A stretch of 62,528 nt of DNA, filler included, from Collodictyon triciliatum (taxonomy: Eukaryota), in assembly GCA_043381765.1 (NCBI GenBank). It is 5 parts of 5 records of this genome, joined end to end, with 100 filler letters (N's around TTAATTAATTAA, not from the genome) between each part and the next. Parts side by side here need not be neighbours in the genome. Positions count along the whole stretch, not along the records: positions 1 to 22,705 come from JBHJMP010000215.1; positions 22,806 to 36,883 come from JBHJMP010000218.1; positions 36,984 to 48,907 come from JBHJMP010000219.1; positions 49,008 to 58,652 come from JBHJMP010000222.1; 1 more part is not named here. One strand, given 5' to 3'. The notes under the pieces were generated by a model. The model searched no databases, was not told where the DNA came from, and worked only from the letters and a program-made list of their open reading frames with translations. Within the stretch, counting starts at the first letter, position 1; every line of letters begins with the position of its first letter. The translations under genes were made by a program, and so were the position numbers. Below, one piece after another: positions 3,803 through 61,182 of this stretch.

Positions 3803-3901
<99 letters not shown>

Positions 3902-3909
3902 CCATAGAC

Positions 3910-6432
<2,523 letters not shown>

Positions 6433-13981: not shown

Positions 13982-16898
13982 ATGCTGCAAATGTCTCGCA
14001 GAAGCAAAGATTCCAGAGGCACCGACGAGACAAGCACGCCGCTTCTTGACGTCTCGAAAAAATACAGTCTTTACACAGAGGACAAAGACAAAGACGTTCA
14101 GCCTCGGTCTGGACTAGCAACTCCGGAAGATTTGGATCGTTCCCGACGGGGTCGACAGGATGGCTCGGCCCTGAACTCCGCAGAGAGTTTCAGATCTTTG
14201 TTTCGCTCTGCTCGCAGCATGAATCAATCGGTAATATATGTGCATGGATATTGAATGCTTTTCTTTTTCTTTCTATTTCCTTGTATCCTTTTCATTCTTT
14301 TCTTTTTCCTCCACTATTTCTTTCTTTATTCAGCCGCTGCAGTTTTTTCAGACTGGTTCATTTCGCACAATTTTATTATTACGTTCATTACATTTGAAAA
14401 ATCTTGCCAACAGTTGTGACGTGTGATATGTTTTTGTATGACCTTTATGTCCATTTATTTATTTATTTATTTTAAAGTATTTCTATATGTCCCTTGATTT
14501 TTTTCTTCCCTCTACTTTATTCTATTTCAATTTATGGACATATTGTATTTCATTTAATCATCACACTCAACTTAATCGACACTTGTACCCTTTCAGTGAG
14601 GCTGAATTATAACAATATGTGTTGGTTTTGATGTTCAACATTTCCAATTCACTTGCGCAAATCAAAAACATGAGCTTTTTTTTTTTTTAAAGAAGAGCAC
14701 AGCTAGTCCAGATTTAATCAATCTAGACTCACTTTTCTTTCTCTATTTCGGTTTCCACATTATCTCTTCCGGTTATGCTTTGAATCAGGAGTTTTCTGGT
14801 GATCCCATCGCGGCTGGAGCATTTCCAGTCACGGCCCAAGAACTATCTCGGCTGCATTCAGAAAGAGATCTGACAGAGTTGGAACGCTGGGGCGGTATCA
14901 ACGGAGTGTTGAAATCCGTTTACTCTGATATGAAGAAGGGAATCGCTCTACATACACTCGATCGCCGATTCGATGCGTGAGTGATTCTTGCTCCTCGCAG
15001 CTCTTTTATGTCCTTACTTGATACCAACTGTTTCTTTATTTGTTGAAACAATTCCTTAAGTGCATGCTAGTACCTTCTACAAAGAAAAAAAAGAAAAGAA
15101 CGCTTGTCCTCTGTAACTTCCTTAATAACCCCTCTATCCTTTTACTTGCAACCATGCCAATCTTTTAATGGTTTGTAGATTTGGCCGGAATCAGTATCCT
15201 GAGCCGCCCTTGCATACTTTCTGGGAGCATTTCAAAGATGGGCTCGATGATACAACTATTCGTATTCTTATAGTTGCCGGAATATTTTCGGTTATCATCG
15301 AAGTAGCCACTGCAGATGATGAGGACGAACGTAGCAAATCATGGGTTGAAGGCTTTGGTATTCTCCTGGCAGTCATTTGTGTCGGCCTGGTCACTGCATG
15401 GAACAATTATTCAAAGGAGCTTCAATTCCGCTCCCTGAATACAATTAAAAATAATCGAGCGGCTCGTGTCATTCGAGATGGGGTTCAACAGCAGGCCTTT
15501 TCGTTCGATATTGCTGTTGGCGACGTTATTTGTTTGGATGCTGGAGATATGATACCAGCGGATGGGTTTCTAATAAATGGATTTGGTACGTATGGATAAA
15601 TGGTTTCCTAAATATAGTTCTGTTTTTAATTGCCAAGTCAGTCCTTCGTCTCTTTTTCTTTTTCTTTTTCTTTTTCTTCTTCTTTTTCTTTTATCTCTGT
15701 TTCTGTTTCTGTTTTAATCTTCCTTCTTCTTTACGAGCACATCTTGACTATATCCAGCAAGAACATAGCGATTTTTTTAATTCGTTTGATATCCTCCGCA
15801 CGCCCGTAGACATTGAGGTTGATGAATCAGCAATGACAGGAGAGTCGTATACATTGAAGAAAGGAAAAGAAGATCCGTTTATGCTTTCAGGCTGCCAAGT
15901 AAGACTATAATTTATGTGGACCATCTATTACACGCTTTTAAATATTACACACGGCCTCGAAACTAGAATTACCCTGCATATGTACAAGCCCTCCTCAAAC
16001 ACTTGGCTGTATTTGAATCATGAACTAGCCATTATTTGCTTTATGTTCATAAGATTACGCAAGGGACTGGATCAATGGTTGCAACATGTGTTGGGATTAA
16101 CTCAGAATGGGGTCGACTTCTCTCTACTTTGGCTGAAGAGCGTGAAGAGACTCCCCTTCAATCAAAACTAAATGTTTTGGCTGAGCGTAATGCTTTTATA
16201 CATTTCAATACTTTGAATTCTTCAGATAATATAGTCATATCTCTTCCTATTTTCTTACTCACCTCTTCAATTTTTTTCTTAGAGATTGGTAAATTTGGTG
16301 TTGCTGCAGCGTTGCTGACGTTCTCAGTTCTTATGATCCGATGGATTGTGGATGCAAATATCCTTTTTCTTTTCTTTTCTTTCCCTTTTTTTAAAATTCA
16401 ACAAAACAAGAGTACTAGAGCAGATACTCCAATGCAGTTGGCCTTTATCTCCATTCTCAAATATTTCAACGATTCCTTTTAATTTTCGATATTTCTTTTA
16501 TTGTTTGAGACTTTTTTTCTTATTTTTCCTATGCTTTTTCTTTTTTTATTAGATTATTCATTATACGTTTTATATATTACCATTCAATATTATTTTCATC
16601 ATATCTCGAAAATTTCCCCACCTGTGATCTTTAATTTTGGCTACTTCAAGATTTCGAAACTGGCGACCTAACAGACATCCTCGACTACTTTATAATCGGA
16701 GTTACAATCGTTGTCATTGCTGTCCCAGAAGGTCTGCCGCTGGCTATCACTATATCCCTTGCGTACTCGATGAAGAGAATGTACAAAGAAAATAACCTTG
16801 TCCGTCACCTTGAAGCGTGTGAAATTATGGGTGGAGTGACAAATATTTGCTCGGATAAAACTGGGACTCTGACAATGAATAGAATGACAGTAGTTCAG
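13982..16898 (+). CDS. Plasma-membrane-type Ca2+-ATPase (P2B/PMCA), N-terminal half only
   Basis: Motifs [74 protein letters not shown] and CSDKTGTLT. The gene stops at a microsatellite/N gap. Start codon approximate. Confidence 0.93.
16358..16644 (+). other. U12-type intron (AT-AC; an AT-AG end at 16650 is also in frame) in the PMCA gene
   Basis: Donor ATATCCTTTT, branch-like ATCTTTAAT at 16627-16635, acceptor CTAC|. Splicing gives [24 protein letters not shown]. Confidence 0.75.
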
Positions 16899-17072
16899 GT
16901 TCATAATATGGATATTGCTTATTCATATAATCTTCAACTATGCTATACCATATGAAATCAAAAGATTCTATCATTATTTGAGCCACAGTCAATTGACCTA
17001 ACGATATGAACCATTGTTTTCTTGGTGCTGTCATTTAAAAGTTTGAGCATATCATCACCTAATACATATGTA

Positions 17073-17169
<97 letters not shown>

Positions 17170-17347
17170 GTATGTATGTNNNNNNNNNNNNNNNNNNNNN
17201 NNNNNNNNNNNNNNNNNNNNNNNNNNNNNNNNNNNNNNNNNNNNNNNNNNNNNNNNNNTATGTATGTATGTATGTATGTATGTATGTATGTATGTATGTA
17301 TGTTCCTTCTTGGCGAAATGGATGCATGCGGTGTTGCTACCGCGCTT

Positions 17348-20300
17348 TCATCGATACTCACCAAACACTGGCGCCGAGCCGGAAAACAGCCCTGCCGGAG
17401 AAATGATGTCCCCGACTTGAGTCTTGTGGAAGGCGGGCATCGCGTGCAAATGCGCAGCCGCCAGGTTGGGACCGATGCCGCTTGGGTGGAATCCGAGTCC
17501 GTATGGCATCGCTGGTTCCATGAGGTCGTCTCCGAGAATCTCTTCGGGACACATGGCCATGTTGAGCAAGTCCTGGATTTCTGCATCCTCGTCCAGCATA
17601 TCGTAGTATTCAGGCGTCTGACTTGCGTTCATGCCGAACGGCGCCTGCTCCAGGAAGTTGCTGGGGACCGAGGGACCGGCACCAACTGGGGGGATGTGCG
17701 GTGGGAGATACCCGTTCATGGGCGCCGCACTGGTCCGATCCAAGCGTGCACCGGGGCCATGGCGCAATCCAAGAATGGACGGAACTGAAAACAAGGATGG
17801 CGTGTTTGCATAGACAGGCTGCCTCTGCGCGGGAGGCTGTCTGCCGGGCGCGTTCCCTTGAGAAAAGACCGACTCGACGTTGAGCGGTATGACTGTTGGA
17901 TTGAGTGGGATGTGGCTGATGGAGCCCGGGAAGCCTATGTTTGAGCTGTCGGCTGCGAAGCCGGGTATTTGCGTTGTCTGTTCTGACTTTGCGCTCAGAA
18001 TAGAGCCTGGCTTTCCGTGAGACGGGTTGCCTGATGGCATGCCGAGAATCGGCTGGCTTTGCTGCAGTGGAAGAGATTTTGCTGTGCTCCATGAAGATAA
18101 AGAGGAGGAGTTTGACGATGACGACGACGAAGCTGGGTTCTGCATGGATTTTGAGGCATTTGAGGTGCTAGCGCGGTCGATGTCGGACGGGTTTGTCCCG
18201 AGCGGCGGGAAATCGTGTGGAGACAACAAAATGGATTTTGATGCTGCCGATGTATTGTCCAGAGGATAATTAGACGCAAGTCTGTCCAACTCCGTGCTTT
18301 TTTCGTAGTTAATGACTCGTGGAGTGACGGAAGGGACTGTCCTATCCGAAACTGTGTTTGGAGGCTCCGCAAAAACCGAGGTTGTTGGTGGGCGATTCGG
18401 AACTATGGCGGGGGTATAGGGACTACCACTGGCTTCGTTTGCAGCTTTTTCCTTGGGGGTTGAGGTTTTCGTCTGCGACGCGCTCGTGTTACTGGGTTGT
18501 TTGCTTTGTGATTCGTTGTCAATACGCTCTTTTCGGTTCACAGAAGGACTTGGCTGGATTGTGGTGGCTCCAACTGCTGCCGGCCTTTGGTCGGGTGCCT
18601 GCTTGCCTGAAGAATGGGTATCCTCGTTTGGAGAGGGTTTTTGTGGTTGAGACGCATTGGATGGTGGCTTTCCTTGTTTTTCTTGGGAGTTTGTCAGAGA
18701 CTTTTGTGTTGAAGGCGAATTTGTCTGAGGCTTGCTTGATGAAGCTTTGGTTTTTGATTCTGGTGTCTATTCAAAGAATTTATAATTACATACAAGCATG
18801 ATTGTATTTCACTTATATTCAGTTACTCGTCTTAAAAGAGATACACATATTGATTATTATTCCTATTATTATCTTTTTTTTTTAAAAAAAAAAAGAGAGA
18901 AGTGCAAACACACAAATTCGAATAAGAAAAAGATAGATACTTTTTGCTGCGTCTGGTTCCCTGCTTTGGCCTCCTTAGCTGTTGGCGGGGTTTGCGAGTT
19001 TGATTGAGCCTGCTTTTCGTTGGGTGGATTTGAGGTTGTCTGACTGGATTCGACTCTTTTGTCGGCCTTCTGTTTGGTCTTATTGAGAAGAGGGGTTGTT
19101 TCGTTCGGCTTTTCAGCTGTCTCTGGGGCTTCAAGATTACCCTGTACCTCCTTTGTGGGTGTCTTTGTTTCTGATGGTTTTGTTTCTGGCTGCTTCTCGT
19201 GTGTACCGCTCTTTGGGGCACCATCTGACTCGGGTGGTTGCTGCTCTTGTTGTTCTTTTTGTTGCTCCTGTTGTTGCTCCAAACGAGCAGCCTTTTCCTG
19301 CTGCTTCTTTGCCTTTTTCTCCTGATGCTTACGAATTTTTTCCTCTTGTTTCTTTTTGAGTGCTTCTTCTCGAAGTTTTCGCTCCTGTTCTTCCTTCTCT
19401 TTTCTTCTGAGCTCCTCTTGCTGCCTTTTCTGCTCCTCAAGAAGCTTCTTTCGACGCTCTTCCTCGAGCTTGACCTCGCGGAGTTTTTGTTGACGAAGCC
19501 GCTCTTCCTCTTCTTTCTGCTGCTTCTCTTTGAGTCTCTTTTCCTTGTCTTCCTCAGCCTTTTGTTTTAACAGCTTCTTTTTGTCCTTCTTTTCCTTGCG
19601 CCTACGCTTCTCTTCATCCTTGCGGCGCATTTCAGCCTCCATCTCCTGTAGAAGCTTCTGTTGCTTCAAGTAAGCATTTTGCTCACGATAAGCTGCGAGG
19701 ATGCGCTGCTGGAACAGGCGCGTGGCAAAGACATAAAACATCCTGCGCCCTTCCTCCTGGTGCTCCTCCTCTGGTGTTGAGTAGCCATCTTCGTCATCCT
19801 CGTCATCCTCGTCGACAAGCGGCTTCGGCAAGTAATTATCGCAGTCCTGCTCAATCGGATGTTCGTACTCCCGACAAGTAGTGTGGAGTGCGTGGTTTAG
19901 GTGTGTCTGGTCCACAGCAAACTGAGGGTCGATGTCTGACAGGCGGAAGGCACCGTTGCCTTCATCGATCATCAGAAAGTCATAATGGCGTGCATTGGAC
20001 GACGGATCCGTCTTGCGGTAGATGTACGACCACGCCCTTTTGTCCTTGCCTTCGATCGGCACCTCAACCTTCTCCCAATATCCACCCTGCGTGTGTTCGA
20101 TGATTTCAGGTGGCTCCTGTCCTTCTTCGTACTCAAACTCGTCATCGTACTCATCGTCTTCTTCGTCATCAAAGTCTGCATCGGCTGCCATGTGGCTGTG
20201 ATGATGGAGATGAGAGTGATGCCGATGGCTGATCTCGTCGACGTAATCCTCGCCTTCGTCTGCGCCGTTCTCTTCATCATCGTCCTCCAGGTCATCATAG

Positions 20301-22705: not shown

Positions 22706-22805
22706 NNNNNNNNNNNNNNNNNNNNNNNNNNNNNNNNNNNNNNNNNNNNTTAATTAATTAANNNNNNNNNNNNNNNNNNNNNNNNNNNNNNNNNNNNNNN
22801 NNNNN
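22706..22805. other. Artificial scaffold spacer (N-TTAATTAATTAA-N); same spacer at 36884-36983, 48908-49007 and 58653-58752
   Basis: Identical all-frame stop linker centred in N runs, four times. Confidence 0.97.
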
Positions 22806-22930
22806 TTTTTCTTTTTCTTTTTCTTTTTCTTTTTCTTTTTCTTTTTCTTTTTCTTTTTCTTTTTCTTTTTCTTTTTCTTTTTCTTTTTCTTTTTCTTTTT
22901 CTAGCCCTTTTCCCAGCCTCTTTCTCACAG

Positions 22931-23342
22931 CCAGTCCACACCCACAGGCACCCGGCCTTCCACGCATGTTCCACAGCACACACCTCGTGCGCTCCGTCAT
23001 CCTTATCTTTGGAGGAAAGCGAGAATACGCGGAGGACGGACTCGAATCGATCTACGCCTTTGATACGGGTATGCACTCGCAGGAATAACAACAACAAATG
23101 ATGCATCATGAATAATGAAAAAGAAAGAGAAAGAGAAAAAGAAAGACACAACAGAAAACACAATCTGAATCCCACGGGCAGACTCGTCCGTCTGGCACAA
23201 GATCACGGATCGGCAAAGCCTTTCGCTCAACGCCCGGCACGGCCAGTCGATCGTGACGCACGGACCGCACATGTATGTCTTTGGCGGCTGCCACCTGCGC
23301 ATCTGCTACAACGACATCCACGAAATGTCCCTCACTTTTTAG
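22931..23342 (+). CDS. Kelch-repeat protein, last two exons (not in the ORF track)
   Basis: PRMFHSTHLVRSVILIFGGK..IYAFDT|DSSVWHKI..ARHGQSIVTHGPHMYVFGG..YNDIHEM*, with a GT-AG phase-1 intron at about 23069-23181. Confidence 0.85.
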
Positions 23343-23806
23343 CCCCTCACGAACCCAAGAAATAAACGAATCACAATCACAATCACAATCACAGTCACGA
23401 TACAACTGCAATCAATGTTGTAAGCACAGTCACAGTCATCACAATCACTCGCCAACCCGAATGTTCACTCTCGTTGCTTCTTTTCTTCTTCTTTTTTTTT
23501 TTTTTAAGATGAGATAAAGAAAAGAGAAGAGAAAAACGACAGAAAATATCGAAGGAAAACAGGCATTATCGCACGATTCGTTCTGTAACAATGCGGAAGG
23601 GGAGGTGGGTGAACAGAGATAAGACTATGGCGTCTGTAAAAGAAAGAAAGAGAGAGAGGAGGAGGAGGAGGAGGAGGAGGTTAGTTGAGAAGCACAAAGG
23701 TTTTCTTCTGCTGTGTTGTTGTGGTTGTCTGTCTGCGATGATGAATCACGATGCTGTTCTTTATGAACGGGTGGACACCCGGTAATCCGCGACGGCTGAT
23801 TTCTGT

Positions 23807-23887
<81 letters not shown>

Positions 23888-24178
23888 TGATTGCGTCTGT
23901 GCTTGGTCGAATGATTGTGAACTCCCTCTCCTTTTTTTTTCTCTTACTCTTTTCTCTCATCCTTGAGTCTTCTTCTTCTTATCTTATACTTCCTTCCTGG
24001 ACAAAAGAGACAGACACTCGTGCATGCAAAGAGAGCAATAACAGAAACAAAAGAGAAAGAAACTTAAAACATAAAATAAAAACAGATAAAAAAAAAAAAG
24101 GAAGGTTAAAAACAAGAAGCGGAGGGCAACAGGAAGAGACAAAGTCGCGCCTTTGCTTGCTTTTGAAGTCTGAGCGAC

Positions 24179-27100
24179 TCAGGCCAGTTTGTTGAAATAA
24201 GTCATGCACGGACGCAGTTTTTGCGGCTGTTTTGTGCGTGTGGAGCGTCGTGTGTATTGGGAGTCGAGGGTTGATTCGACGTCGTGGATTCTTTTGCGCA
24301 TGGCTTTGGAGTGGAAACAGTCCGTGAATCAATTGATGATGGTATGAATGATAATGATATTGATGATGATATTGATGATGATATTGATGATGATATTGAT
24401 GATGATATTGATGATGATATTGATGATGATATTGATGATGGTATTGATGATGATATTGATGATAGCAATAGGAACGAGGAGATATATATGAATTGGGATT
24501 CACAACGCGATATGTATGTATATTCTTGTTTGTTAGTTTCTTACCGGCAACGATTTTTTCTTCGTCTTGTGTGATGATGCGCTTCAATTTTTGCTCGCGG
24601 ATGCCTTTGTCATTCAGGTAGAGTTTGAGCTGCTGGATCTGCACATATGCGGTGGTCAGCTTGGTCATGTGATGTGGTTTGCTGCATCTGATTTATGTGC
24701 GCTTTGCATATTCGAATATGTGCATATCTATCTCTTTGTGTTGGTGTTTGAAAGTATGTTCGACACACAAAAAATTGATAGCTGGGCAGGTGAATGATGA
24801 AACAAAATCAAAATAAAAGGTTCTCTTATTTTTGTTGTGATGGAAAACAGAAAAACCTCCTCAGGGTGCTCGTAAAACCCCCACGATGGACTATTGGGCT
24901 CGTTGTCAACGAAAATGCGGCCATCTCCAAAGTTCCAGTACCTTCGATATGATAGTATTTTATGAATCAATGCTACCCCAGAATATTTAACAAAAGTTAA
25001 AACATAACAAAGGAATAGAGACTAAAAGTGAACGAAAATAATATTATATGTCTTTTGTGCTGGGCCTGAATATATATGTGTTTTAGCGGTATCGAAGGAA
25101 AGAATGACTGAGTGAAGACATAAAAAAACTTCTTTTTTTTTTTAATACCTTTGGTGCTCCCTGTCGTGTCCAATGGGTGTATGACGCACAGCAAACTTGG
25201 CCAAATCTTTTTTCATTTGCTCTTCCTTGAGGAGAAAAAAAAAAGCAAAAAGTCTCGAAGGTTTTCTTGTTGACTCTTGAAGCGGGGGGAAACCCAGCGA
25301 GAGAGTTGCGATGAAATATTTGCGTACTAATATTCGGAATGCAAATAACTCACTCTTATATTGCTTCTCCGCTCATATTCCTCTGTGTCATACTGCTCTT
25401 TCTCCTATATTGAGCATCATTGTTACATCTTCTATGCAACACACCAGCTTTATGAATGACAAATATTTCTGCTGGTATTATTATTTATTATTCTTATTAT
25501 TATTATTATTATTATTTATTATTTATTATTTATTATTTATTATTTATTATTTATTATTTATTATTTATTATTTATTATTTATTATTTATTATTTATTATT
25601 TATTATTTATTATTTTCAACCCAAGAGGGAGAAAAATTAATAATAATAGAAAGGTACGTAAGCTTTGAGTGACTTTGGCTTCCCTCGCGGTTTCCATTCT
25701 CTTCAGTGTTTAAAGTATATTTGAGTAACTTATTATTTATCTTATATGACCGTGTTTTATTTTTTTTTTTAAAAAAAAAAGGGATAAAAATTGGATAATG
25801 TTTTTTTTTTGTTTACATTGGCTTCTTCTGTTCCAAAGATTCGTCATTTTCACTCGCATTCCCTTTATCCTGATTTGGTTTTAATTAATTACTTTTTTTT
25901 TTTTTGTTAAAAGAATAACACTCAAATATGCTCTCTTTATTTCTTTGTATCTTTGTATATTTATTTCCGAGACTTGTAGATAAAAAACCAGCAAATTTAA
26001 GCGTGACGGGACGTATTAATTATATTTATCTATAGGAGCTTACCTCTAAGAGTTCTCTCCTATCACTCAAGTCATGTTCTCGCGCTTCTTGCTTCAACTC
26101 GGCTATCTTTTCGATATTTGAATCCATAACCGACCTTTTAATGATTTTTTATTGTTGTATTATAAATCACAAATAATAGCGAGAGAAAAACTTACACTCG
26201 CGAATAATTTACGAAACACTATCGCCACAATACTGCAATTTTTTTTCAAAAAAAAAAGAAAAACCTTATTTCGTTTGTTTCTAGTACTTTTTGAATAAGG
26301 AATTCCAACAAGCAAATTTTTTCCTTTATTGAAGGTATGAAATATTTAATAAATAAAAAAGAACTCTTCGCCAGAAATGCTCAGTAGATTTTTTTTTCAA
26401 ATTTTTGTAAATAATGCAATCATAAAAAATTTTTAAGTAACCCTGTCTGATTAGGGCGAATGGGAAATTGAATTTTCTAAAACGAAGGCTCTAAACTTTA
26501 TCCACACGATATTTCAGGAACACAAAATATTTTCATTCCAATTGTAAATCAAATCGCACCTGCGTTTTGAGATGCGCATACCCAAATTTGAGATTTGGAA
26601 CGAAGCGATAATCGGGTTTTATCTTATAGAATTCGTCCTGTTTGACACTGCATTAATACCTCAAAAAAAATTTGCTCGAAAAATCATTCCAGCAGGCGTG
26701 GTTTTATTAAAATATACATATTCGCTGTGGCTACTCTGTATGTATTTGGCCAGTTTAGATTCCCAGTTGTCGACTAAATCCAGAAAAAAAAAAACATCCT
26801 TCGTTATTAGGAGAAAAAAATATAAAATGTGTGTGATTTTAAGCAAACCTCACTCTTTTTCAAAAGACAAAAAACGTACCTGTTACGGATTTTTCGCTTT
26901 CGTTGTGTACGTCACTTAGAATGGACTTCAACAGTTGAGAATATAGAGAAGATATCAAAGGGCTTTTCTGAACGGTGGACATGTATTTGTGTAAAAAGTA
27001 CAGGGTTTAGTGCCAACAGATGAAGTAAATTGTTGGGACAGGCCATATAAACGCACGTCAAGGTAGTGAGGAGATGTTGATGATAATGATAATGATAATG

Positions 27101-43200: not shown

Positions 43201-45714
43201 TGTTACCCACTACAAGAAAATTCTCGATGACCGTCTTCGATTCCGCCTCTTTAATCTTCTCGGACACGCAAACCGTGCAAACAATCACATGAAACAGAGT
43301 GTTGATAATTTTTTGAAATGGTTTTTATTCGTTCTAAATATTGCCTCTCTAAATGATTCATCTATTTTATTTGTCTTGCTTTACCTTTCTTATTTTTATT
43401 TGGCTGTCTTTTGCTTCATCGCCTTTTGGACTTATTAAGAAAGGAAAACTAGTCTTTCTACTTTTGTTAAAAAAAAAAACGTAATGATCCACCCTTTCTT
43501 CCCTTCTTCTCAATATTCGATGCAGTATCAGAGTTCCAAATGCTATCGACCACGCATTCGTTGAGCTTAGGTTTTACCATAATCAAAAAGAAAAAAAGAA
43601 AAAAAGAAAAAAAAGAGAGAGAAATAAAAGAAAGAAAAAAAAGGGACAGAGATAAGTTTTTATTCACACGCGCACGACTTATTTTCGCACATGATCATTG
43701 CCTAGCCCTCATCGCACAGAAATAGAGAGGAAACTGGGCAAGAATGAGTTGTCTGCATTGAAAGAACTGGCGTGCACCTTAATCTTGCAAGGTGACATAG
43801 TCGATGCCATTTCATCATAACTGCACATGCAATGTGAATGAGATTTTCTTCCTTTTGTTAGTATTGCCTGATGTACAAATCAGTGTTCTGCCTTTGGGTA
43901 TGAAACAAACAGATGGAAAAAATACTTACCGAGTTGTTTATATATATTAACTTTCCTTAGATGAGGACAATCTAGGCATTCCGTTCATAGAAAAATGGGC
44001 CAAGTTTTTCGCTAGCTCCCGAGATGAACGATTCATGCAGACTCGTAAAGACTTAGAATTACTCCCAACAAAGAAACTGCATATGGCTCTGCACTTGAAT
44101 CTCAAGAACCTTACTCTTCAATTACTGCAACAAAACGACCCGAACGAACCCGTGAGTATCAAAAAAAAAAAAAACAATTTTCGGATGGTTGTCTGAGTAA
44201 TTAGCATTCCTCTTTTTTCTTAAACAAACAAACAAACAAACAAACAAACAAACAAACAAACAAACAAACAAACAAACAAACAAACAAACAAACAAACAAA
44301 CAAACAAACAAACAAACAAACAAACAAACAAGATATAAAAGACAAAAAAAAAGAAAAAAGAAAAAAGAAAAAAACAGAAAGTAGAAACCTACGTTGATAC
44401 CTTTTCTTTCTTTTTTATGGTATGCAGGATGCCTTAGGTTGCACCCCACTTCACTACGCTGTAATGACTAGTAACATAGTAAGGACGTTTTATCATACCG
44501 ATGAAAAAGAATGGCAAATATTTTGAACGTAATCTTTCGCTGCGTTGAGATTCAACGCTTCATCTTGTTCCTCTTCGTACAGGAGCACGTACAGCTATTG
44601 TTGGAAAAAAGAGCAGACCCTAACATCGCTGCCAATATCCGCCGCAACAAAAAAACCTGTCTGCATTATGTCTCTGATGCTCTAATTCTCGAAAAGCTCA
44701 TACAAGCTGGTTAGTGGTGATGGCCAAAAAAAAAACTCACAGAGAAGAATTCTAAAACAGCTTTGCACTCTTACTTACATCATGTATATCCTATTTCGTA
44801 AAGAACTCAAAACGTGCCGTAAGCTCACCAAAACATCTTTGTCACTCTTTTAATGCCATAAACGAATCATCCAAAGGAGCCAACACCAAGGCCGAAGATG
44901 AAAATCTAGACACTCCGCTCCATAATGCAGCCTTTCAGGTTCGATGCGACACTTGCTGATATATATAAGTACAAGTATACATCTTTATTCGGCATGTGAT
45001 GTTGCATTATAGGATTCTCTCATGATTTTTTTATTTTTATGATTATTTCAAATAATATTCGTCTTTTTCTTTTCTTTTCTTTTCTTTCTTTTTTTTTTTT
45101 TGTACCTCAAACCTAGTCGAAAATCAGATCAAAAATCAAAAATCAAATACAACAATGTATATACGCAGGGCTACAACGAAATCGCACGGCTGCTCATCGA
45201 GAACGGAGCCGACGCAAACGCAGCAAACAGCCGCCGACAAACGCCGCTCCACAACGCATGCATGAACGGACACGAGCCCGTGGCGGATTTGCTGCTCACA
45301 AAGCAGGCAGACATCGACGCGTGCGACGACGCGTGCGACACGCCGCTTCTGCTGGCCATCAAGCACGAGTCCGAGGACCTTGCGTCGCTTCTGCTGGAGC
45401 GGCAGGCAAGCATCCGCGCCCGCGACAAGGACGGCAACACTGCTTTGCATCACGCCGTGATTGCCGGCTTCGACGACATTGTGGAGCAGATCATGGGCGT
45501 GTCGGGCGCGTCCGATATCATCAACATGCAGAACTCTGCCGGGCAGACGGCGCTGCACATCGCCCTGGAAAACGACTCCGAGTACGTCGCAACCGTCCTT
45601 GTTGGAAAGGGCGCGAGTCTGGACATTGCAGACGGCAACGGGAAGAGGCCGCTGGACTTAACCAGCGATGCCGAAATCACAGAGAAAATCATGAGCATGA
45701 GAAATGCTCAGTGA
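37245..45714 (+). CDS. Large protein with a long coiled coil, a TPR-like helical segment and C-terminal ankyrin repeats, about 30 exons
   Basis: Continuous in-phase exon chain from ATG 37245. E/K/L heptad-rich exons at 38200-41960, TPR-like exons at 42962-43320, ankyrin motifs GCTPLHYAV, DTPLHNAA, QTPLHNAC, GNTALHHAV and GQTALHIAL. One N gap lies in an intron, so a two-gene model cannot be fully excluded. Confidence 0.72.
40712..40843 (+). other. GC-AG intron
   Basis: AA|GCAAGA donor. The flanking exons join in frame (AQIKKGKDEIATL), and no phase-2 GT donor is available before the exon frame stops. Confidence 0.7.
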
Positions 45715-46110
45715 TTGATTGATTGATTGATTGCGTTGTGAATAAGTTGGGAGTTATTTTGCTTTGTTTTTGTTCAGTTTTTTTTCTTCCTCTTTTGTTG
45801 GGAAAGCTGCGGTTATGTGCGAGCTAATTGCGCTGATGAAGGAAAGAGACATCTTGTGAGAGCCGGCTGAAATTGATGATGAAAAGAAGGGAATCCCACA
45901 GAATAAAATGAAATGAAAAAAAGAAAGAAAAGAAACCATCCAACTACATCGTATAGGGCAGAGGAAAGAGAATTGTGTATTTGTACCGCAGGGTTTACGT
46001 GGGATTGGAGAGGAGGAAAAAGTGCGTATACACCAGTGGTTGAGGATTAAGATTCAGTTTTGTTGGATGGCGTTGTGTGGGATTCATACATGAATGGATG
46101 TTCTGTTTTG

Positions 46111-46151
<41 letters not shown>

Positions 46152-46299
46152 AAGGTTGATGCTGCTATGAAATCCATTGGTTTTACTAATCTATTGGATC
46201 ATAAGGAAATGCATTCAGTCACATTCTTTATTCTGATTCCTTCCTCTTTATTTTTTTTTTTATTCTCTTGATTCTGATGAGCAGAAAATGGCAAACCCG

Positions 46300-48670
46300 C
46301 TACTGCTGGTGGACTTTGTTGAGGTACTCCATATACTCGTCCAGTTGCAGCTTCGTCTGCTGCTGGTTGATTGCTTGCTGGCCAAAGCCACCATCCGATA
46401 CATACAGAATGCGGTCAGCATAGCACTCAAGGTCAGGGTTGTGTGTTACCTGTGAAGTTGTGCAAGGGAAAAGGGGATATAGAAACGATGGTCATAGTCA
46501 AAAGGATGAACAGGCAGAAAATTGGGGAAGTGAATGTCCGGCGCCTTGTGCCAAATATATATATATATATAAACAGAAATGATAGTAGAGACAGAGTATT
46601 GTACCATAATACACGTTGTTTTACGGTGGCGGTTTATGTCGAGGAGGAGGTTCATGACTTCCACAGTGTTTTTTGTATCCAAGTCTCCAGTGGGCTCATC
46701 AAGAAGAAGAATCTTTGGGTCGTTGGCCAAGGCTCGTGCAATGGTTCTGTGCGGGAGTGGCCAATGAATGGGCAATGACTTTGGTATGTAAGTGACATAT
46801 AATAGCTCGGTATTTAGAGATAGAGACAGGAGGAAATATCATAGTATGGTTCGCTTCTAAAAAAAAATAATTAGATGTATATATTCTTCACCCGTGCTAT
46901 AGTGAAAAATATATTGATAAGAAATAAAGAAAATAATAGACAATGCATCGGCGTGATATTAGAGTAAATTTGCTGGATGGATATATATACACTCTCTGTT
47001 GTTCTCCGCCTGACAGTTCGGACGGCTATTATATTCAAAGAAATAAAGAAAGTATAAAGTATGTCAAGGTGCAAATATACATGGTAATTTTTCTGGGTAT
47101 TAACGTAGAAAAATATATAAATATATATAAGCATTTCAATGGAAGTTGGATGTATTACGAGATGGCCAACTCTGTCACGCAAACCAACCACTGTTAATCG
47201 ATGTAGATTTATTTAAGTGAAAATAAAAATGGGAATATTCTTCCCCTTTACTGTAAATATTAAAAAAAAACCTTTTAAAAAGTATGAACTGACTTAGTAA
47301 TGTTTCCATTTTTTTTAAGTAAGCAGGCATATAAATTATGTGTCGATTAATATTTGATAATTGTAATTTATATTTATTCATATTTATACTATTTAGAAGC
47401 TGCAATGCACGCTTTCTTCTCTCATCTGCACTCAGCTTGCCCAGAATGGTCATTGGCAACTCAACATTTTCAAATGCAGACATAGTCGCCAAAAGATTGA
47501 AACTTTGAAACACAAAACCTACAGCGCATAGGTCACCAAGGCACTATCATTACTAATGTTTCAATATACGGAGGATAAATAAAGTGTTGCATATTATTAA
47601 ATATATAGGTAGAAAGGGCGGCTTTTGAAGGCTGCCGATGCTCAAACGACACCACAACAAACCAATTTGAGAGAGCCTTAAATCAGATAGCATCGAGTCG
47701 GGTGATTTCTCATCGATTCGGATACCCATTAAATCTGAAGCATTGAAGTTAAAGAACAATATCATGTTATGTGAATATTGTTATTTTGAACTTGGAATAA
47801 TTTAGATCAAGTAAAGGAGAAAAAAAGAACTTTTAATATTATTACAAAATGATATTACTACAAAAAAAAAGGATAAGAAAGGCGATCCGAAGGGCCACAT
47901 CAGAAAGAAATAGAATATAAAAGACAAACTACTTTCAATCACCTATTGTCCCGGATGAAACTTTGTCGATTGTCCCTACGATGTTAAGCAAAGTTGTTTT
48001 TCCACCTCCACTTGGACCCAGAATCATGACGAATTCCCCACTAAGTTTTTTTTCGAGCTTTACATGGTATCTTTAATGGCAATGTGGAAAATGAAATCCA
48101 AGAGGATTGAAAATATAACAATTTGTCGTTTTTTACATGTGTAATGATTGGTACTCATTAGAAAGGGAAACCGTATTCTATTTTACAGAAAGTGAACCTT
48201 CTTATTGGCTCAAATTCACTCCCATCACAGAGATTAATATCTCTCAAGGCACTGACATCCTCTGCTCGTCCAGGGATTTTATATGCTGCGATATTGTTAT
48301 TTAAGCGAAATGTCTCGTTTTTTATTTTTATTTTTTTAATACGACCCGTTTCTTTAACATCGATTCTAATGAATAAATCGATTGTAAAATAATAGAATAT
48401 CGTGATTGCACATGTAATAGTAAATTTCTTATATTCTAATTAGTACAAACATTGGTCATTCTGATTTTAAAAAATAATTAAAAATGATTAAAATATAAGT
48501 AAAAGGATAGCACGCTATTGGTCAAGGATATAGTAAATAAGGTTAATTTTTATTATAATAATAAAATAAATAATAACTATGTCACCTTTAAATACGTTGC
48601 GCAACACAACAACCGGCGGGCCAAGCTGTTTAGGCTCGCTCATATCACCGTCCAATGGCTGAAAATCCGC
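46300..48670 (-). CDS. Stand-alone ABC ATPase of LolD/MacB type (Dictyostelium AbcH-like), 5' truncated
   Basis: Walker [13 protein letters not shown]-loop [10 protein letters not shown], signature [12 protein letters not shown], Walker [14 protein letters not shown]-loop MVTHN. The stop follows directly and no TM domain is visible. Confidence 0.92.
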
Positions 48671-48773
48671 CTACGAGGATTGCCGTATAGTTTCTTTTCA
48701 AATGAAAACAGCATATACAGAGAAAGGGCAAAAAGAAAGATTAATGAACAGAAAGTATACATAAAAATTAATC

Positions 48774-48847
<74 letters not shown>

Positions 48848-48848
48848 C

Positions 48849-48889
<41 letters not shown>

Positions 48890-49206
48890 AATAATCATAA
48901 TAATAATNNNNNNNNNNNNNNNNNNNNNNNNNNNNNNNNNNNNNNNNNNNNTTAATTAATTAANNNNNNNNNNNNNNNNNNNNNNNNNNNNNNNNNNNNN
49001 NNNNNNNTTTTTCTTTTTCTTTTTCTTTTTCTTTTTCTTTTTCTTTTTCTTTTTCTTTTTCTTTTTCTTTTTCTTTTTCTTTTTCTTTTTCTTTTCTTTT
49101 CTTTTTTATTCTTGTAAAGGACAGGAAAAGAAAATACATAATCACTTATTACATAAAATAGAAAATAAAACAGCTTATAAATGTCTGTCTATTGTATTAT
49201 AATTAG

Positions 49207-49973
49207 AGTGTCCCCCACCGAGGTTCGGCTGCTCCTTAGATTAGTCAAAGAACCTGAGTGTTCAATGCATTTGAAAAGAGAGCTGCTGGTAGCATTGGAA
49301 AAGAGTCACAACACAGCTCCTTTTATAGACTTTGACCCCAGAGAGATGTAATATATTTGCCTTTATGTTATTTAGTTTCTTTTTTATTTTACTACATTTT
49401 ATTTGTATTTTCTATTCTCAAAAGTTGACTTGAAGGAAAAGTTTATATTTCATTTCTTTTTAGTGGTCACTGTGCTCTGAAGTATCAAGGCTTAAGTGAG
49501 CGTTCATGGCCACCAAAAAATGGATACACATTTTCATTTTGGATTCATATTTCACATATGGAAGGGAAATTAGACCCATGTGATTTTTCAATTTTTTTTT
49601 TTTTTTTTTTTACTTTTGTTCTGTGATTCAACCGAGATCATGTAATAATAATAACAGCGGCACCTTCGTTAAATGCTCATTTTTCTTGCACTTGATTTTA
49701 ATTTTGCTTCAATGTAGGCAAATTTCAACTTTTTTCAATTACCAGCGAAGATGGGCGCTCCAACATGCAGATTTTAATTGACGACAAGAGGCTTACATTT
49801 ATAACTAACAATAAAAACTTGCATACCTTTAAGCTACCTATTCAAGAGAAAATGTGGTACCATGTTACTTTCGTTCACCTCCGAGCTAGGATTCAGGTTT
49901 CATAATCACAAAAATTTTGCTACATGATATATTTATTCGATGTTTGCTCAAAGTATTCGACTATTTTGTTTTT

Positions 49974-50026
<53 letters not shown>

Positions 50027-50126
50027 NNNNNNNNNNNNNNNNNNNNNNNNNNNNNNNNNNNNNNNNNNNNNNNNNNNNNNNNNNNNNNNNNNNNNNNNNN
50101 NNNNNNNNNNNNNNNNNNNNNNNNNN

Positions 50127-50163
<37 letters not shown>

Positions 50164-53100
50164 TTTTTTTTGTTTTTTTGTTTTTTTGTTTTTTTGTTTT
50201 TTTTGTTTTGTTTTGTTTTTTGCAGTCGAGTACACTCACCTTGTTTGTGGATGGCCAAACCTACGAGTCCGTGAAATTGGCCTATCCGAACACTTCAAAC
50301 GTCGCATTTAACTTCACAATGGGTAAGTTAAAAAAATAAGCGGCACTATGTAAAATTATTCTTGCTTATTTAACTCATTGCCATTTTTTTTTAAAAAAAA
50401 AAAAAATAATCCCAATAGGCATCCCACAGACTTCCAAAGAAGTTTCGTCCCAATCTCTTATGTTGCCTCTCCAGCAAAAAATTCACTGGCAACTTGGGAC
50501 GATGTACTTGTTCAACTATGAGTTGAAGTAGCTTTTTATTTGGTTTATTATCTCAGTCTTTCGCTGTAATTTAGGAAATAGACTATCGATAAATAAAATA
50601 AAAAAAATACCTCTTTGAGATGTTATGTTACTCATCATAAAAAGACACTAATGTTATTTTAAAAAAAAACCTTCTTAGCTCGTCTGCCATACAATTACTC
50701 TTTTTGCTTGGAAAGAATTACTTTGGGCATTTTCTGGGGGATTTAAGAATGTTCCACGTCTACGAGAACACAAATTTTGATTTGCAATCGATCGAACAGT
50801 TTTCTTCGAAACATGGAATAACTTCAGATAATATTATTATGTGTGTATCTGCCGTGCACAGTGGAACTGTGATTTCTGAAGATGGCTGTCAAGGTATGCT
50901 CCGTTATGCATGGCTAAACCATCAAGATAGAGAAGAATGACATTGAATTATATGGGTTGCTGTCTTAATATAGTTAGATTTGTCTAATCTCTGATACAAA
51001 CATATAACAGAGACAAGGTACATTAAAAATATAATGGATCCAGCGGGTAACTATCACCAAAGAGCAATATTTTCCGGGAGGGCATATGCATATCATCCCT
51101 GTAGTATAGCAGACGGAGTCAGAAGAGTTGGAGGCATATCAATTTTTCTGTATCTTATATCAGCCGCTCAGGTTTGCATCATGCAAGATTGAAATTATTG
51201 TGTTCTACTTCAACATGAAGCGTAATGTGTTGGTGAGTTTATTTATTCATTCTTTCATTTAGAAAACGGAAGATCTTAATCTAGCTCTCAGTCTGTTAGT
51301 ATCATCAATCAAGTACAAATCTCTTTGCATCATAGAATTTGAAATATTATTGGAATCTAGAAGAATAATTTTATTGTTTTTTTTTTTTTTTATTAATTCT
51401 CAAAAAAAAATCTGAAGAATAATATTGAATGATTTTTAATATTGGTACTATTATATTGCAATTCGTACCATCAGGTACAATCCAAAGAATACGAGTGAAA
51501 TGCAAAGAACACGTGGATACGAAATCGTTGCTAATTTCTTGAAACAAAAAGCTGCTTTTGCCGACCCAGCAACCCTGGATATTCTTCTTATGCTTGTTGG
51601 TTTCAATGACGAGCTTAATCCCATCGCAGGTATATACTCTGCCATAGTATCCTAGAACAAAAAGAAAGAAAAATAGTATATTTCATTTTGTATTTTAAAA
51701 AAAACAATTCAATTACCTTACCGATCTTTCTTTTAACCATTTATTTATCATCCAGCTAACATTCTGGCTTTGAAACATCTCATATTGAACTTTGATATTT
51801 GGATACACACACAAAGTGGTATACAAATGCTTCTTTTGGATAAGATAATATTGTTCTCGTCTGCCAGCGAGAACGTGGATTACAACCTGAAAAGGATTAG
51901 AAAGTTGCGTATCCTTGTAAAATAACTCGCTTTTTACTTATTATGCTCTGTCGTTACAAAAGTAATTGCTGTCGTCTTAAAGGTTTCAACAAAGTAAGTT
52001 TAATCTTGACAGCGTCTCTTTAAGATATCGTCGAATTACTTTTGGATCTGCTTCAAAACGAGAGTCTCCAAGAAATTCTTCTTCCAAAAGTCTGCAATAT
52101 ATTACTGCTCCCCAAATTGCGCTTTATCTGCAATCATTTACTAATTTTTCGCCCAGTGGTTCCATACTATTGTATTTAGAAAATTTTTTTGATTAATGTG
52201 TCCTGTCTTCTCCATTTCCATTAAAATAATCAAGTACTTTATTTTAAGAGTAATATTTTTTTTTCATAAAAAGGTGGTGAAGTTGCTGAAAATCATTGTC
52301 TCACATAGTCTTCAAAAAGATGACATGCAAGTGAGTAGTCGAAATTGAGCACAGCTATATCATTTGCCTGGATTTTTGTCTCATGGTTGTACTATTAACG
52401 TGTAGTGTAAAAAAAAAAATTGGGCTATCTCCTTAATTTTCATGTTATTTGTTAGATATTTATCAACTTTCTGTTGAATACACTCCCACCTGTTGCGTAT
52501 GCACCCTACCAGGGTGTTGGGAATTATACCCCTGGAAGAAAAATTACTATTACAGCGCGAGGCTCTGAAACCCGCGGAAGAAAAAATTCAGGTAACTTCG
52601 TGTCTGGAACAACAGCAAATATTTAGCATCCTAATTATTAACACTGATTTATGTTTAACTTTACAAGTATTACCAAGTTTCACAAAGACCTCCGACTTGG
52701 GGCAAAGGGGTATCATCATCAGAAATATGGTACTAGATATGCTCTGGGATATATTAAAAATTGATAAGGAAGCCCGAAATTTGCAACTTTTTACAAAGGT
52801 TTGATCACAAATGATTTCATAGATGGATTTCGATGGCATATTACTCAAAATGTATATTACCGGTGCCAATTCCATTTAGCTTTCGATCAATTTTCTCTCC
52901 TTTTTTAACTTAATATTTAACTAACCCTCAAATATTTTATTTTTTTCTTACCCCATTCTCTTAATTTGCATCTTTTTTTTGCCAAACCAGTTCCTTGGTT
53001 TCCAAAATTTGCTTTGCTTGATGGAGTACTTCCCAATTTTGAAATCAGTGGCGTCCACAAGAACCGAGCATATATACTATATTCGTCCTGAGACTACTGT

Positions 53101-54491
53101 GATTTTATCGTTGAAAATTCTTATTTTTATGCTTTTGAACAAGTCAAATTTCTTGACTAAATTCCGAAATGAAAAAGGGTATGTTTATTTGCTCCCTTGC
53201 TTAAGCAGGAATCTTTTCTTTTTTTTTTCAAGATCAAAATATATAATTATTAACGATATAGATCTTTTTAAGATCCATGCCACCAATCATGTCTTTTTTT
53301 TTTTAAAAAAAAAAAAAAAGGTTTATATCTCTGGGTCATCTGCTGGCCCCTTATCATTCTCACCCCGAGATATATTACCTTGTAATGTGCTTGGCTTTAA
53401 ACAAACCTATGCAAGAGTCCTTTCCAGCTCAACTATCGATTCAAGGACTATCATCCACAACTCCCAATAAGGTTGCCACTAACAATTAATTCAGTATATA
53501 ATTATATATGTTGTAAATTTAAAATAATACAATATCTTTTCTATTATTACAAGATAATTAACCTCGAAAGAACTTTGTTAACGTGTTTTCTATCGCATTC
53601 GCCAGCTTGATCAGCCAAGTGCAAGACCTATGGAATTTAATTTGCACATCATCGAGGCTCTTGACGTATGTCTAACGATGCTGAAGTATCGACTCAGACA
53701 CCCACGAGAGTCTGGACGTCGGGGAAATCCCGTAACTGGAGCAGCAAATCATGTGAATATTTTCAGTCCTCGTTCGTATGCCTTCGGCGGCGAAGAACGG
53801 CCCAGATCCGTGACAAAGACTATGTACGCAATTATCTTGCATGTAGCATGCTTTTACACTGCTTACTTATTTGTTCTTCCGTTTTAATTGACGAATTATC
53901 TTGCTGTGTTAGGGATATTACATCAGTTGTGAGTGACGAGCCAGTTTTTGAAGATTTATCAAGCTCATTCGTCCAGATGGTCAATGATATATTGAATTGC
54001 TCCCCAGACTTCTTTGAAACAATCAAAAGACCCGAGTTCATGGAACCTTTTGTGGAAGTATTATTCACTCATGTAGACGAAGCTTTTTCTCATCCAGTAC
54101 GAAATCCCGTAACAGCGGACCAGACAATATTTTCTCAACAGTTCACCCCGATTGGGTCTAATCCTGCCCGTGAATGGGAAACTCCCACTCAATTAGCAAA
54201 GCGTCAAGATTTTGGTACATAGATTTACAACGTTATCATAACCGTTAAAAAAACTATTTTGTGCATAGCCTATCTTCCTGTGTATTTTTATAGTTTAGTC
54301 ATTTAAATTTTATGATACCCTTTTTATTTTTATTATTATTATTATCATTATTATTATTATCATTATTATTATCATTATTATTATCATTATTATTATCATT
54401 ATTATTATCATTATTATTATCATTATTATTATCATTATTATTATCATTATTATTATCATTATTATTATCATTATTATTATCATTATTATTA

Positions 54492-54576
<85 letters not shown>

Positions 54577-57500
54577 AATAAAGGAACAGAAGCAAAAAAA
54601 CTGAAGGATGCACAATTTTTGGAAGAGACAGAGTCTATCGATAAATTCTCAGACAGTCAGTATTTTAATTTGTATTTTTTTTTTCCATCATACATATGGT
54701 TATATTAACCAATAATGAAATGTTATCAATTTAATTAATTTGACCGGGTTGGTAAATAGCGAGTTCTTCTGGGCCGCCAACTCCTCGAAGAATGTCGATT
54801 CCATCGCCTTTCCCAACTACGTATAACGAGCACTCATTCCTCGCAAAGGCATATAAATTACTCAATTGCTTAATTGCAAAGAGTATGGCCGCTAATCCCA
54901 AGGCCATGTCAGTTCTTGAATGTGCACTGGAGGTACTTTATTTCCCCTTTTTCATGGGTTTATGAGAATTATATATTTTTGCTAAATTTTATATGTCCAA
55001 GAAAAAGGGAAGTTTTTAATATGCATAACATATAGGCATCCCCAAATAATTGTGCTCGTGACTATATTCAAACGTATCAGAGTCGCGTACTTCGAGATTT
55101 AATGATTACAATAGAAGAGACGTTATCAAGCTCCAGTCTGAATAGTGAGATGAGTCGGACATTCGGTAACATTGTGCTAATCATACAGTGTTGTTTATTT
55201 CGAATAGGAACGTACAAAAATTGATATTTCACTGGATGATCATTCATATGAAATCATCTAAATTTAAAAATTAATTATATCAGTTTCGAATACAGCGAAG
55301 GCTACATTGCTTCTTGTGGATAAATTCGTACAGGGAGTCGCTATATTGGATCTAGATGTTGTTCTAAAATTTGTAGTTTATGTTGTCAAAGTTGTAGAGA
55401 ATGATGGCACAATTCGTATCCTTGAAGCTATTAGCTGATGTATGCATATGTGTTGACTTGAATTATGCACATGTTGAAATAATATAAAAATGTCCCGTTA
55501 TTTTTTTTGAAAATAATAATGTCGTATCCAGCATTTTATTTTGTGTAGATGCTTACAACCTTCTATTAAATCTGAGCAGACTATTAATTTATCCTTAACT
55601 GACGGGAAAAAAAAAAAAAGAGCGGTCATCCTTCCCTCCAGCCTTCAAGGCCGATCCTAATTTAACAATTGCAATCAAATCACTAAATAGATTGGTACTC
55701 AATCGACTTTATGATATTTCCTTAACAGCTGAAAATGAGGCAAAAATTTTTTTGAAGGTAAGGATATACGGTTCACTAAAGTTATGATAATTGTTAGACT
55801 TTTAGAGGTATATAATTTTGACGGTTTTGTACCTTATCCTAGTAGATTTCTTTCTTACATGAAGATCATTTATGAATAATAGAAACTTGAGCCACATTCA
55901 AGAATCATTTTCGGAACAAACAACACAGACCCAGAATTTTACCTGTGTGTATGCTCAACTTTGATTCGCTTGTGGAAGGACGCTACACCTGATTTGCAAT
56001 CAGCGATAAATCATGTTTGGATATATGGGATACATGTTTTAAAATAAATCATATTTTGACATATTGCATGCGAGCTGTGCAATTTATTTATGTGAAACTA
56101 TTGCTAATATTTCAATAATAAATAAACCCTAGTTCTTTAAAGAAATATTAAAGTACAAAAAGCCTGCCATCATGTCCCTATTTTCTAGGAGCTCATCGTA
56201 TATTCTTTATTCAATGTATAAAGGATATAGTATCAATAGTCTCATATTTGTATCATGCATAGGAGAAACGAACAACAAAATGTCTTTGTTACTGCACTTC
56301 ACTTTATAGAGAAGGATGTATACATTATCTCACTTGAAATTTGAGCAGTATTACATGTCCTGCAGTGTGTTAAATTATGTTGCTAGCTTTTTGTTTTATT
56401 TTTGATTAAGCGTCAATTCTTTATCTCAGATGGCAGATGACTTTATGAGATGGTGTCACGAAACAAACGAACACGTGAAAGCTGCCCTGGATGAATGCAT
56501 GACCAAACCGAGCAAAAGTGCGAAAGACAGAGAGAAGAAATATCAGTCTGACTCCCAAGAGCAATTCAGGAGCAAGAAAGAAACCAAAAATGCCGTATTA
56601 ATCTGATTTGAAACTCTTTACTCTTATTTTGTGGTTTTATGATGCAGATTAATGGATATTCATATTTATCCATTGTATCTTTCTTTTTCTCTTTATTTAA
56701 TTCAAGGGACTTATCCATAGTAACATACATTAGAGGCTGGATAAGAAACAAAGGGCAGAGGCAAAAGTGGGAAGTCTTCAGAAAAGAGAGAGATCTGCCC
56801 TTATCACTAACGTCCAAGTAATCTAATTTATTTTATTTTATTTTTGCGTCGAGAGGGAGAGGAGGCTCACTCTTTAATCAACTAAACATTTTTCAAAACC
56901 CAAGAATCAAGAGGCTATGAAGGCGAAAAAGAAGAAACTCGATATCCGAGACAGTGACTCTTTTGCTGCAACGGCTTGGGAGAAGGTTTAGGATTTGTAC
57001 TTGTATTTTTTTTTTTCAATACTTAAGCTTTGAGTGACTCACATTTAACAATTTGTTATAAAGCTACGAAACAACCTTATTCGCGACCGAGCTGTGTGGG
57101 GTAACGTAGATTCGTCTCATAGCTCAATCTGGGTCCTTGACTCTGCCGAAGGTACTCAGTTTTTCTATTGTGCACCGAAATCGCTTGGTTCCTTTCATTT
57201 TTTTTACCTGGGTCTGAAAGTCAATTCATGTGTTACTTGAAATATATCAAACTGTTATTTTGCTCCTACATTTTGTTTGTGCGTTTATTTATATGTGTAT
57301 TTTGATTTTGATTTTGATTTTGATTTTGATTTTGATTTTGATTTTGATTTTGATTTTGATTTTGATTTTGATTTTGATTTTGATTTTGATTTTGATTTTG
57401 ATTTTGATTTTGATTTTGATTTGATTTTGATTTTAATCTATCTAAAAAAAAAAAAAAAGGACCCTCGAGGATACGGAAGAAACTTATACCAACTACTGGG

Positions 57501-58522: not shown

Positions 58523-58561
58523 GTGCGAGATTTTCAAAATTTAATGGACCCATATTATGCT

Positions 58562-58652
<91 letters not shown>

Positions 58653-61096: not shown

Positions 61097-61182
<86 letters not shown>

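Follow-up and report, generated by a model that had tools for sequence, protein, structure and literature searches.

Three canonical U12-type introns in two genes point to a retained minor spliceosome in a collodictyonid-like protist

We analyzed a DNA stretch of 62,528 bases (hereafter the window), which consists of five scaffolds of a putative collodictyonid-like protist, and found three introns that have the full signals of minor (U12-type) introns. One of these (site 1) is an AT-AC intron in a gene for a PMCA-type Ca2+-ATPase, and the other two (sites 2 and 3) are GT-AG introns that share a many-exon gene tentatively assigned to the BEACH family. The original prediction had described three phase 1 introns with RTATCCTT donors and near-acceptor branch motifs on two scaffolds, and all three were located where it placed them. 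These are probably genuine minor introns in two genes; their local frequency of 2-4% is a small-sample value that would fit a genome-wide density of about 0.3-1% and gives no evidence of an expansion of the kind known from Physarum. The five scaffolds occupy positions 1-22705, 22806-36883, 36984-48907, 49008-58652, and 58753-62528. The joins between them (22706-22805, 36884-36983, 48908-49007, and 58653-58752) are each composed of 44 N, a 12-base stop-codon linker, and another 44 N, and separate runs of 100 N or longer within the scaffolds are assembly gaps. The window is AT-rich (32-43% G+C), contains many microsatellites, and is dense in introns. The features that define the three introns are as follows (nt, nucleotides).

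16358-16644, + strand: site 1, putative U12-type AT-AC intron of 287 nt, phase 1, in the PMCA-type Ca2+-ATPase gene, between exon end 16357 and exon start 16645.
16358-16365, + strand: 5' splice site of site 1, ATATCCTT, a perfect RTATCCTT; the upstream exon has AA, not AG, at -2/-1.
16628-16635, + strand: branch-site-like motif of site 1, TCTTTAAT, with the branch A 10 nt from the intron 3' end and two mismatches to TCCTTAAC.
51909-52024, + strand: site 2, putative U12-type GT-AG intron of 116 nt, phase 1, in the BEACH-family gene, with donor GTATCCTT at 51909.
52003-52010, + strand: branch-site-like motif of site 2, ATCTTGAC, with the branch A 15 nt from the intron 3' end and two mismatches to TCCTTGAC.
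55416-55620, + strand: site 3, putative U12-type GT-AG intron of 205 nt, phase 1, in the same BEACH-family gene, with donor GTATCCTT at 55416.
55592-55599, + strand: branch motif of site 3, an exact TCCTTAAC, with the branch A 22 nt from the intron 3' end.

Canonical U12-type introns occur as AT-AC and GT-AG subtypes and have a branch site optimum at 11-13 nt from the 3' splice site (sections of PMC3584512). The termini found here, AT-AC at site 1 and GT-AG at sites 2 and 3, are both regular U12-type pairs. For site 1, the borders were examined against the PMCA of Diphylleia rotans. The tblastn high-scoring segment pairs (HSPs) of this protein stop at 16353 (residue 363) and resume at 16650 (residue 367), and the 4 nt before and 5 nt after the intron make up exactly the three missing codons, so that removal of the intron gives a gapless phase 1 fit to the homolog. 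The same gapless fit was reproduced with a longer D. rotans PMCA isoform, and shifting both borders by one base leaves no recognized termini. An alternative acceptor AG at 16650 was rejected; it is in frame, but its use loses two residues, including an aligned conserved Asp. It would also create an AT-AG pair, and mixed AT-AG and GT-AC termini are disfavored in U12-type introns (PMC3584512). The site 1 intron was picked by our exon-chaining predictor in all five settings.

For sites 2 and 3, the borders were compared with read contigs from two sequencing runs (X1 and X2) of one study, and this comparison covered part of scaffold 4 only. The sequence words of scaffold 4 were present at 21% in run X1 and at 15% in run X2; in a further run, X3, no contig aligned to the scaffold 4 part. 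The X1 and X2 contigs are at least 99% identical to the window and skip 15 listed GT..AG intervals, namely, site 3 and 14 ordinary introns, as well as two further joints. We treated these contigs as spliced complementary DNA (cDNA) because 14 other GT..AG introns are skipped in them, the run records themselves giving RNA as a guess. Their loose ends carry what we take to be template-switch cDNA adaptor sequence. At site 3, an X2 contig joins 55415 to 55621 exactly, skipping 205 letters with 48 letters on the shorter side and a depth of 7.1. At site 2, letters 124-279 of X1 record 1 (305 letters, depth 2.5) lie on 51753-51908 and thus end exactly at the donor; 26 letters remain past 51908, and no loose end is listed there. 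When these 26 letters are placed on 52025-52050, the expected depth is (109+14) x 2.5/239 = 1.29 for the bin 51800-52038 and (12 x 2.5 + 32 x 3.9)/239 = 0.65 for the bin 52039-52277. Both equal the printed values, which supports a site 2 acceptor at 52024. Removal of the two introns, both in phase 1, leaves one open frame through the neighboring RNA-supported junctions. The site 3 intron, like that of site 1, was picked by the predictor in five of five settings. The contigs differ from the window by T>C at 53737 in both runs and, in X1, by G>A at 54891, which could be strain or allele variation or contig error.

The three introns stand apart from the ordinary introns of the window, above all in their donors. 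Along 52090-57063 (+ strand), ordinary introns are 65-192 nt long and have very loose donors, with little conserved past GT, and weak pyrimidine tracts. The donors of the 14 RNA-supported U2-type introns are degenerate, and three of them begin with GTAT. From the composition of these 14 donors, the probability of ATCCTT at +3 to +8 is 9e-4, or about 0.13 occurrences per 140 introns. In the predicted set of 141 introns, sites 1 and 3 have no mismatch to ATCCTT, no intron has exactly one, and the other 139 have two to six; site 2, which also has no mismatch, fell out of this set at strand resolution. No other intron, whether RNA-supported or predicted, comes within one mismatch of the RTATCCTT donor. 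For the branch site, we searched a window of 8-24 nt from the intron 3' end. An exact TCCTTAAC was found there at site 3 only, being present in none of the 14 RNA-supported and none of the 139 other predicted introns. Between the branch motif and the acceptor of site 3 (55600-55620), a run of 13 A takes the place of a pyrimidine tract; homopolymer lengths in the assembly may be unreliable, which bears on this run. Over the final 20 nt, the pyrimidine fraction amounts to 0.15 for site 3 and to 0.65 for both site 1 and site 2; in ordinary introns it is 0.40-0.75, so weak tracts occur there too. Concerning phase, minor introns average 22% in phase 0 and are biased in the order 1 > 2 > 0, and major introns have 44/31/24% in phases 0/1/2. 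The finding of three phase 1 introns out of three agrees with the minor bias and carries little weight at n=3.

The upstream exons of sites 1, 2, and 3 end in AA, GC, and TC, respectively, and none in AG. Minor-like introns, as characterized in sections of PMC11347168, have AG at positions -2/-1 of their 5' splice site; the dinucleotides observed here place all three introns on the minor side. Because three introns have full U12-type signals, including an AT-AC intron, with cDNA-backed borders at two and a gapless homolog fit at the third, we infer, with good support, that the organism keeps a minor spliceosome, as the original prediction had proposed. An AT-AC donor does not fit the major spliceosome. 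In the proposed mechanism, U11 would pair with the extended RTATCCTT donor and U12 with the TCCTTAAC-like branch site near the acceptor, and U4atac/U6atac-U5 would perform catalysis; a working minor spliceosome must then have been retained. The three introns would most likely be old, presumably ancestral minor introns that were retained in old, conserved genes.

Several observations weigh against this interpretation. The support for site 1 comes from the homolog alignment and not from RNA. For sites 2 and 3, the RNA nature of the runs is a guess in the record, both runs belong to one study, and contig depth is low (2.5-7); furthermore, the site 2 acceptor depends on depth arithmetic rather than on a listed joint. 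As to branch sites, the distance of 22 nt at site 3 exceeds the optimum of 11-13 nt (PMC3584512), and matches with up to two mismatches also occur in four of the 14 RNA-supported and 17 of the 139 predicted ordinary introns, or 12-29%. In the window, no minor small nuclear RNA was matched by Rfam models, whether the gathering score or E<=1 was used as the cut-off, and no minor-specific protein was seen, no search aimed at such proteins having been made. Lastly, an ordinary density is opposed by the chance of finding three or more minor introns among 80-140: given the human rate of 0.276%, the probability is 0.0015-0.007 (rate from PMC10639083).

The Rfam search at E<=1 returned only sub-threshold matches to microRNA and small RNA families, three of four on simple or low-complexity sequence. 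Among these, mir-297 matches at 7561-7633 and 17062-17132 (+ strand; 42.7 and 30.9 bits vs. a gathering score of 90) lie on TATG/GT microsatellites and were taken as simple-sequence artifacts.

The number of introns against which the three are counted is itself soft. Depending on the setting, the exon-chaining predictor returned 74-92 introns after strand resolution, and pooling all five settings brought the set to 141; an earlier version that built one merged gene per scaffold gave 156-193 and was replaced by exon-level strand resolution. The predictor is crude, and although 15 of the 16 known introns on the RNA-covered stretch were found with the chosen setting (18 predicted), it had been trained on them. 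The original count of roughly 140 introns is therefore plausible as a fair upper-middle estimate and should be read with the same looseness. About 30 introns are confirmed by RNA or by homology, namely, 17 in the BEACH-family gene (15 listed and two further), six in the PMCA gene, and at least seven in a DAHP-synthase gene, and this selection is skewed toward the very genes under study. With 80-140 introns, the local minor fraction is 2.1-3.8%, and the Clopper-Pearson 95% interval is 0.44-6.1% for n=140 and 0.78-10.6% for n=80. For comparison, the genome-wide rates given in sections of PMC10639083 are 0.276% in human, 0.272% (n=205) in Rhizophagus irregularis, and 0.554% (n=249) in Basidiobolus meristosporus, the last being called one of the highest outside Amoebozoa; Protostelium aurantium has n=265. 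Among aligned conserved human genes, 0.828% of introns are minor (PMC10639083).

The leading alternative is that the genome-wide density of minor introns is truly raised (1% or more), by unusually complete retention or by a gain similar to that of Physarum, which we consider possible but clearly less likely than an ordinary density. The local 2-4% and the small probabilities of three or more minor introns, under the human rate as well as under the fungal maximum of 0.554% (0.010-0.044; PMC10639083), speak for it, as do the presence of both AT-AC and GT-AG subtypes, their occurrence on two scaffolds, and the two introns in one gene. However, only three introns in two genes are involved, both genes being ancient and conserved, and at the rate of conserved human genes the probability rises to 0.03-0.11 (PMC10639083). 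The sample is also post hoc, the finding having been reported since three introns were seen, and one gene holds two of them, which leaves two independent genes. No degenerate or non-canonical U12-like donors of the kind reported in Physarum were found, none of the predicted introns being at exactly one mismatch. The three introns resemble canonical minor introns of the old type, and the data do not bear on gain. An ordinary density is thus possible, given that three or more among 140 have a probability of 0.044-0.11 at rates of 0.554-0.828% and that two of the introns share a gene. The possible elevated density or gain of the original prediction is not shown by these numbers, with a 95% interval of 0.44-10.6% across the two sample sizes, a shared gene, and probabilities as high as 0.11. 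We favor a density above the human genome-wide value, a value of 1% or more not being established. A more specific form of the alternative, to which we give slightly less credence, is that minor introns make up 1-3% genome-wide in this collodictyonid-like CRuMs lineage, the highest value outside Physarum, with canonical signals. If true, this could be read as near-complete retention of an ancestral minor-rich state near the proposed eukaryote root region, or as a second independent expansion.

Much less probable is that sites 2 and 3 are U2-type introns with chance GTATCCTT donors and that the AT-AC intron is the only minor-type one. Among the 14 RNA-supported U2-type donors, three start with GTAT, and RTATCCTT is not enriched across the window: it occurs eight times vs. 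4.9 expected, eight occurrences being reached in 13 of 100 shuffles (not significant), and TCCTTAAC occurs twice vs. 1.8 expected. The branch motif of site 2 also matches the U2-type yUnAy branch site and is thus non-discriminating alone, and two-mismatch branch matches are common. For example, the RNA-supported ordinary intron 52331-52455 (+ strand), which has the donor GTGAGT, carries TCCTTAAT 19 nt from its acceptor, which indicates that branch-site look-alikes arise by chance. What goes beyond chance is the placement of the motifs at exon borders, not their number. Against 0.13 ATCCTT extensions expected per 140 introns, two are seen in one gene; site 3 has an exact TCCTTAAC that is found in none of 153 other introns and lacks a pyrimidine tract; neither upstream exon ends in AG; and the AT-AC intron indicates that minor-type signals are used in the same genome. 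Least credible of all is an artifact in which the introns were mis-called through contamination, faulty gene models, or errors in the assembly. In its favor, the assembly is in fragments with many gaps and microsatellites, and the PMCA gene is interrupted close to the gap at 17180. Against it, the highly identical cDNA contigs leave out precisely the site 3 intron and end precisely at the site 2 donor, removal of site 1 aligns the gene without gaps to the transcript of a related species, and the scaffold 1 genes agree on the lineage.

The five remaining RTATCCTT occurrences were rejected as candidates. The RTATCCTT at 11817 is antisense to an ankyrin-repeat open reading frame (ORF), the GTATCCTT at 14283 lies within the first, U2-type intron of the PMCA gene, and the RTATCCTT hits at 55767 and 56228 (- strand) are antisense to the BEACH-family gene. 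For ATATCCTT at 48531 (- strand), with TGCTTAAC 12 nt ahead of an AC, the branch site falls in a coding exon and the donor in the first intron of an ABC-ATPase gene. A relaxed scan of both strands, allowing up to one donor mismatch and up to two branch mismatches, gave mostly noise and would have needed gene models to be usable. Our predictor, which is based on dynamic programming and allowed ATATCC..AC introns, found no further U12-type candidate in the window and returned site 1 as the only intron of this kind.

The lineage was assessed from two genes, both on scaffold 1, whose top matches are both EukProt transcripts of D. rotans, a species that the NCBI taxonomy places in Collodictyonidae, CRuMs. 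For the PMCA exon 15129-15599, the top match is a 704-residue transcript-derived protein with 69% identity, and the second match has 39%; for the DAHP-synthase exon 5597-5881, the top match is a 392-residue protein with 75% identity, and the second has 60%. Exon by exon in tblastn, the conserved PMCA exons are 69-81% identical to D. rotans, and the DAHP-synthase exons are 54-89% identical to its transcript; the N-terminal PMCA exons and one intron-traversing PMCA HSP reach just 33-45%. Judged by these sequences, the source organism is a collodictyonid-like relative of D. rotans and not necessarily D. rotans itself. The DAHP-synthase gene (3900-6350, + strand) has at least seven introns, none with a U12-like donor. 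Downstream in the PMCA gene, the alignment ends after 16901; beyond this point lie a GT microsatellite, a gap of 79 N (17180-17258), and long opposite-strand ORFs (16901-17350), and the gene looks cut short by the assembly.

The gene that hosts sites 2 and 3 was assigned to the BEACH family tentatively, on the basis of a domain match in the exon listed here.

51755-51907, + strand: exon directly upstream of site 2, matching Pfam PF15787 (DUF4704) at E 3.6e-5, 23.2 bits vs. a cut-off of 22.9, profile positions 134-177.

This domain corresponds to the alpha-solenoid region of neurobeachin/BEACH proteins. The 3' exons gave no match to a PH-BEACH or BEACH domain, the scaffold ending ahead of the expected BEACH domain, and a word-index protein search with the frame 57904-58332 of these exons yielded nothing useful for gene identity. 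HMMER matches of the 3' exons to two repeat proteins (fn3, PAAR, and DUF5707) were judged spurious. At least 17 introns are packed into about 5 kb of this gene (52090-57063, + strand). A trinucleotide microsatellite of about 300 nt (54294-54604) lies between a frame closing at 54222 and an exon ending at 54655; it is presumably within an intron and has no contig coverage. Another repeat is found at 57299-57422 on scaffold 4.

One survey covers six of seven supergroups, namely, TSAR, Haptista, Cryptista, Archaeplastida, Amorphea, and Excavata (sections of PMC11347168). CRuMs, Diphylleia, Collodictyon, and Mantamonas are absent from the main texts of PMC10639083 and PMC11347168, and the supplementary species tables of these papers could list one of them. 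The Mantamonas genome (PMC10492846) is described as the first for CRuMs, and spliceosomes are not mentioned there. Our literature search found no paper linking CRuMs with U12 or Diphylleia with minor introns, and nothing useful on U12 introns in PMCA or BEACH genes. With both minor subtypes present, cDNA support for two of three introns, and survey main texts without CRuMs, the introns reported here would add a missing supergroup to the minor-intron map. If the density proves to be 1% or more, this lineage could join Physarum as a second natural system in which to ask what keeps minor introns rare as a rule; if it is ordinary, the finding would be a routine confirmation of an expected ancestral trait.

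Among known systems, Physarum polycephalum has undergone a minor-intron expansion (Larue et al., bioRxiv 10.1101/2020.10.12.336362; also described in PMC10639083); its minor introns reportedly number in the tens of thousands, and their borders are non-canonical and their signals altered. The organism studied here resembles it as a protist that belongs to neither animals, plants, nor fungi and whose local minor fraction exceeds 1%. Unlike Physarum, it has canonical motifs and no degenerate look-alikes among the predicted introns, and three such introns are known. The three are of a known kind, found in an unsampled deep lineage. They share with the canonical U12-type introns of animals and plants the RTATCCTT donor, the near-acceptor TCCTTAAC-like branch site, the AT-AC and GT-AG termini, upstream exons that do not end in AG, a phase away from 0, and their location in old conserved genes (Turunen et al. 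2013, PMC3584512; such introns are catalogued in U12DB/MIDB). They differ in their collodictyonid-like CRuMs host, their short length (116-287 nt), and the site 3 branch at 22 nt with its A-run. Minor-like or hybrid introns (PMC11347168) have donors similar to the minor consensus, as found here, and differ by their AG at -2/-1. The closest parallels may be Basidiobolus, Rhizophagus, and Protostelium, for which the figures are genome-wide (PMC10639083), in contrast to the 60-kb sample with 2-4% and a very wide interval here. In those organisms, canonical minor introns persist, with hundreds genome-wide (PMC10639083), and a similar state is the most likely outcome for this collodictyonid-like lineage.

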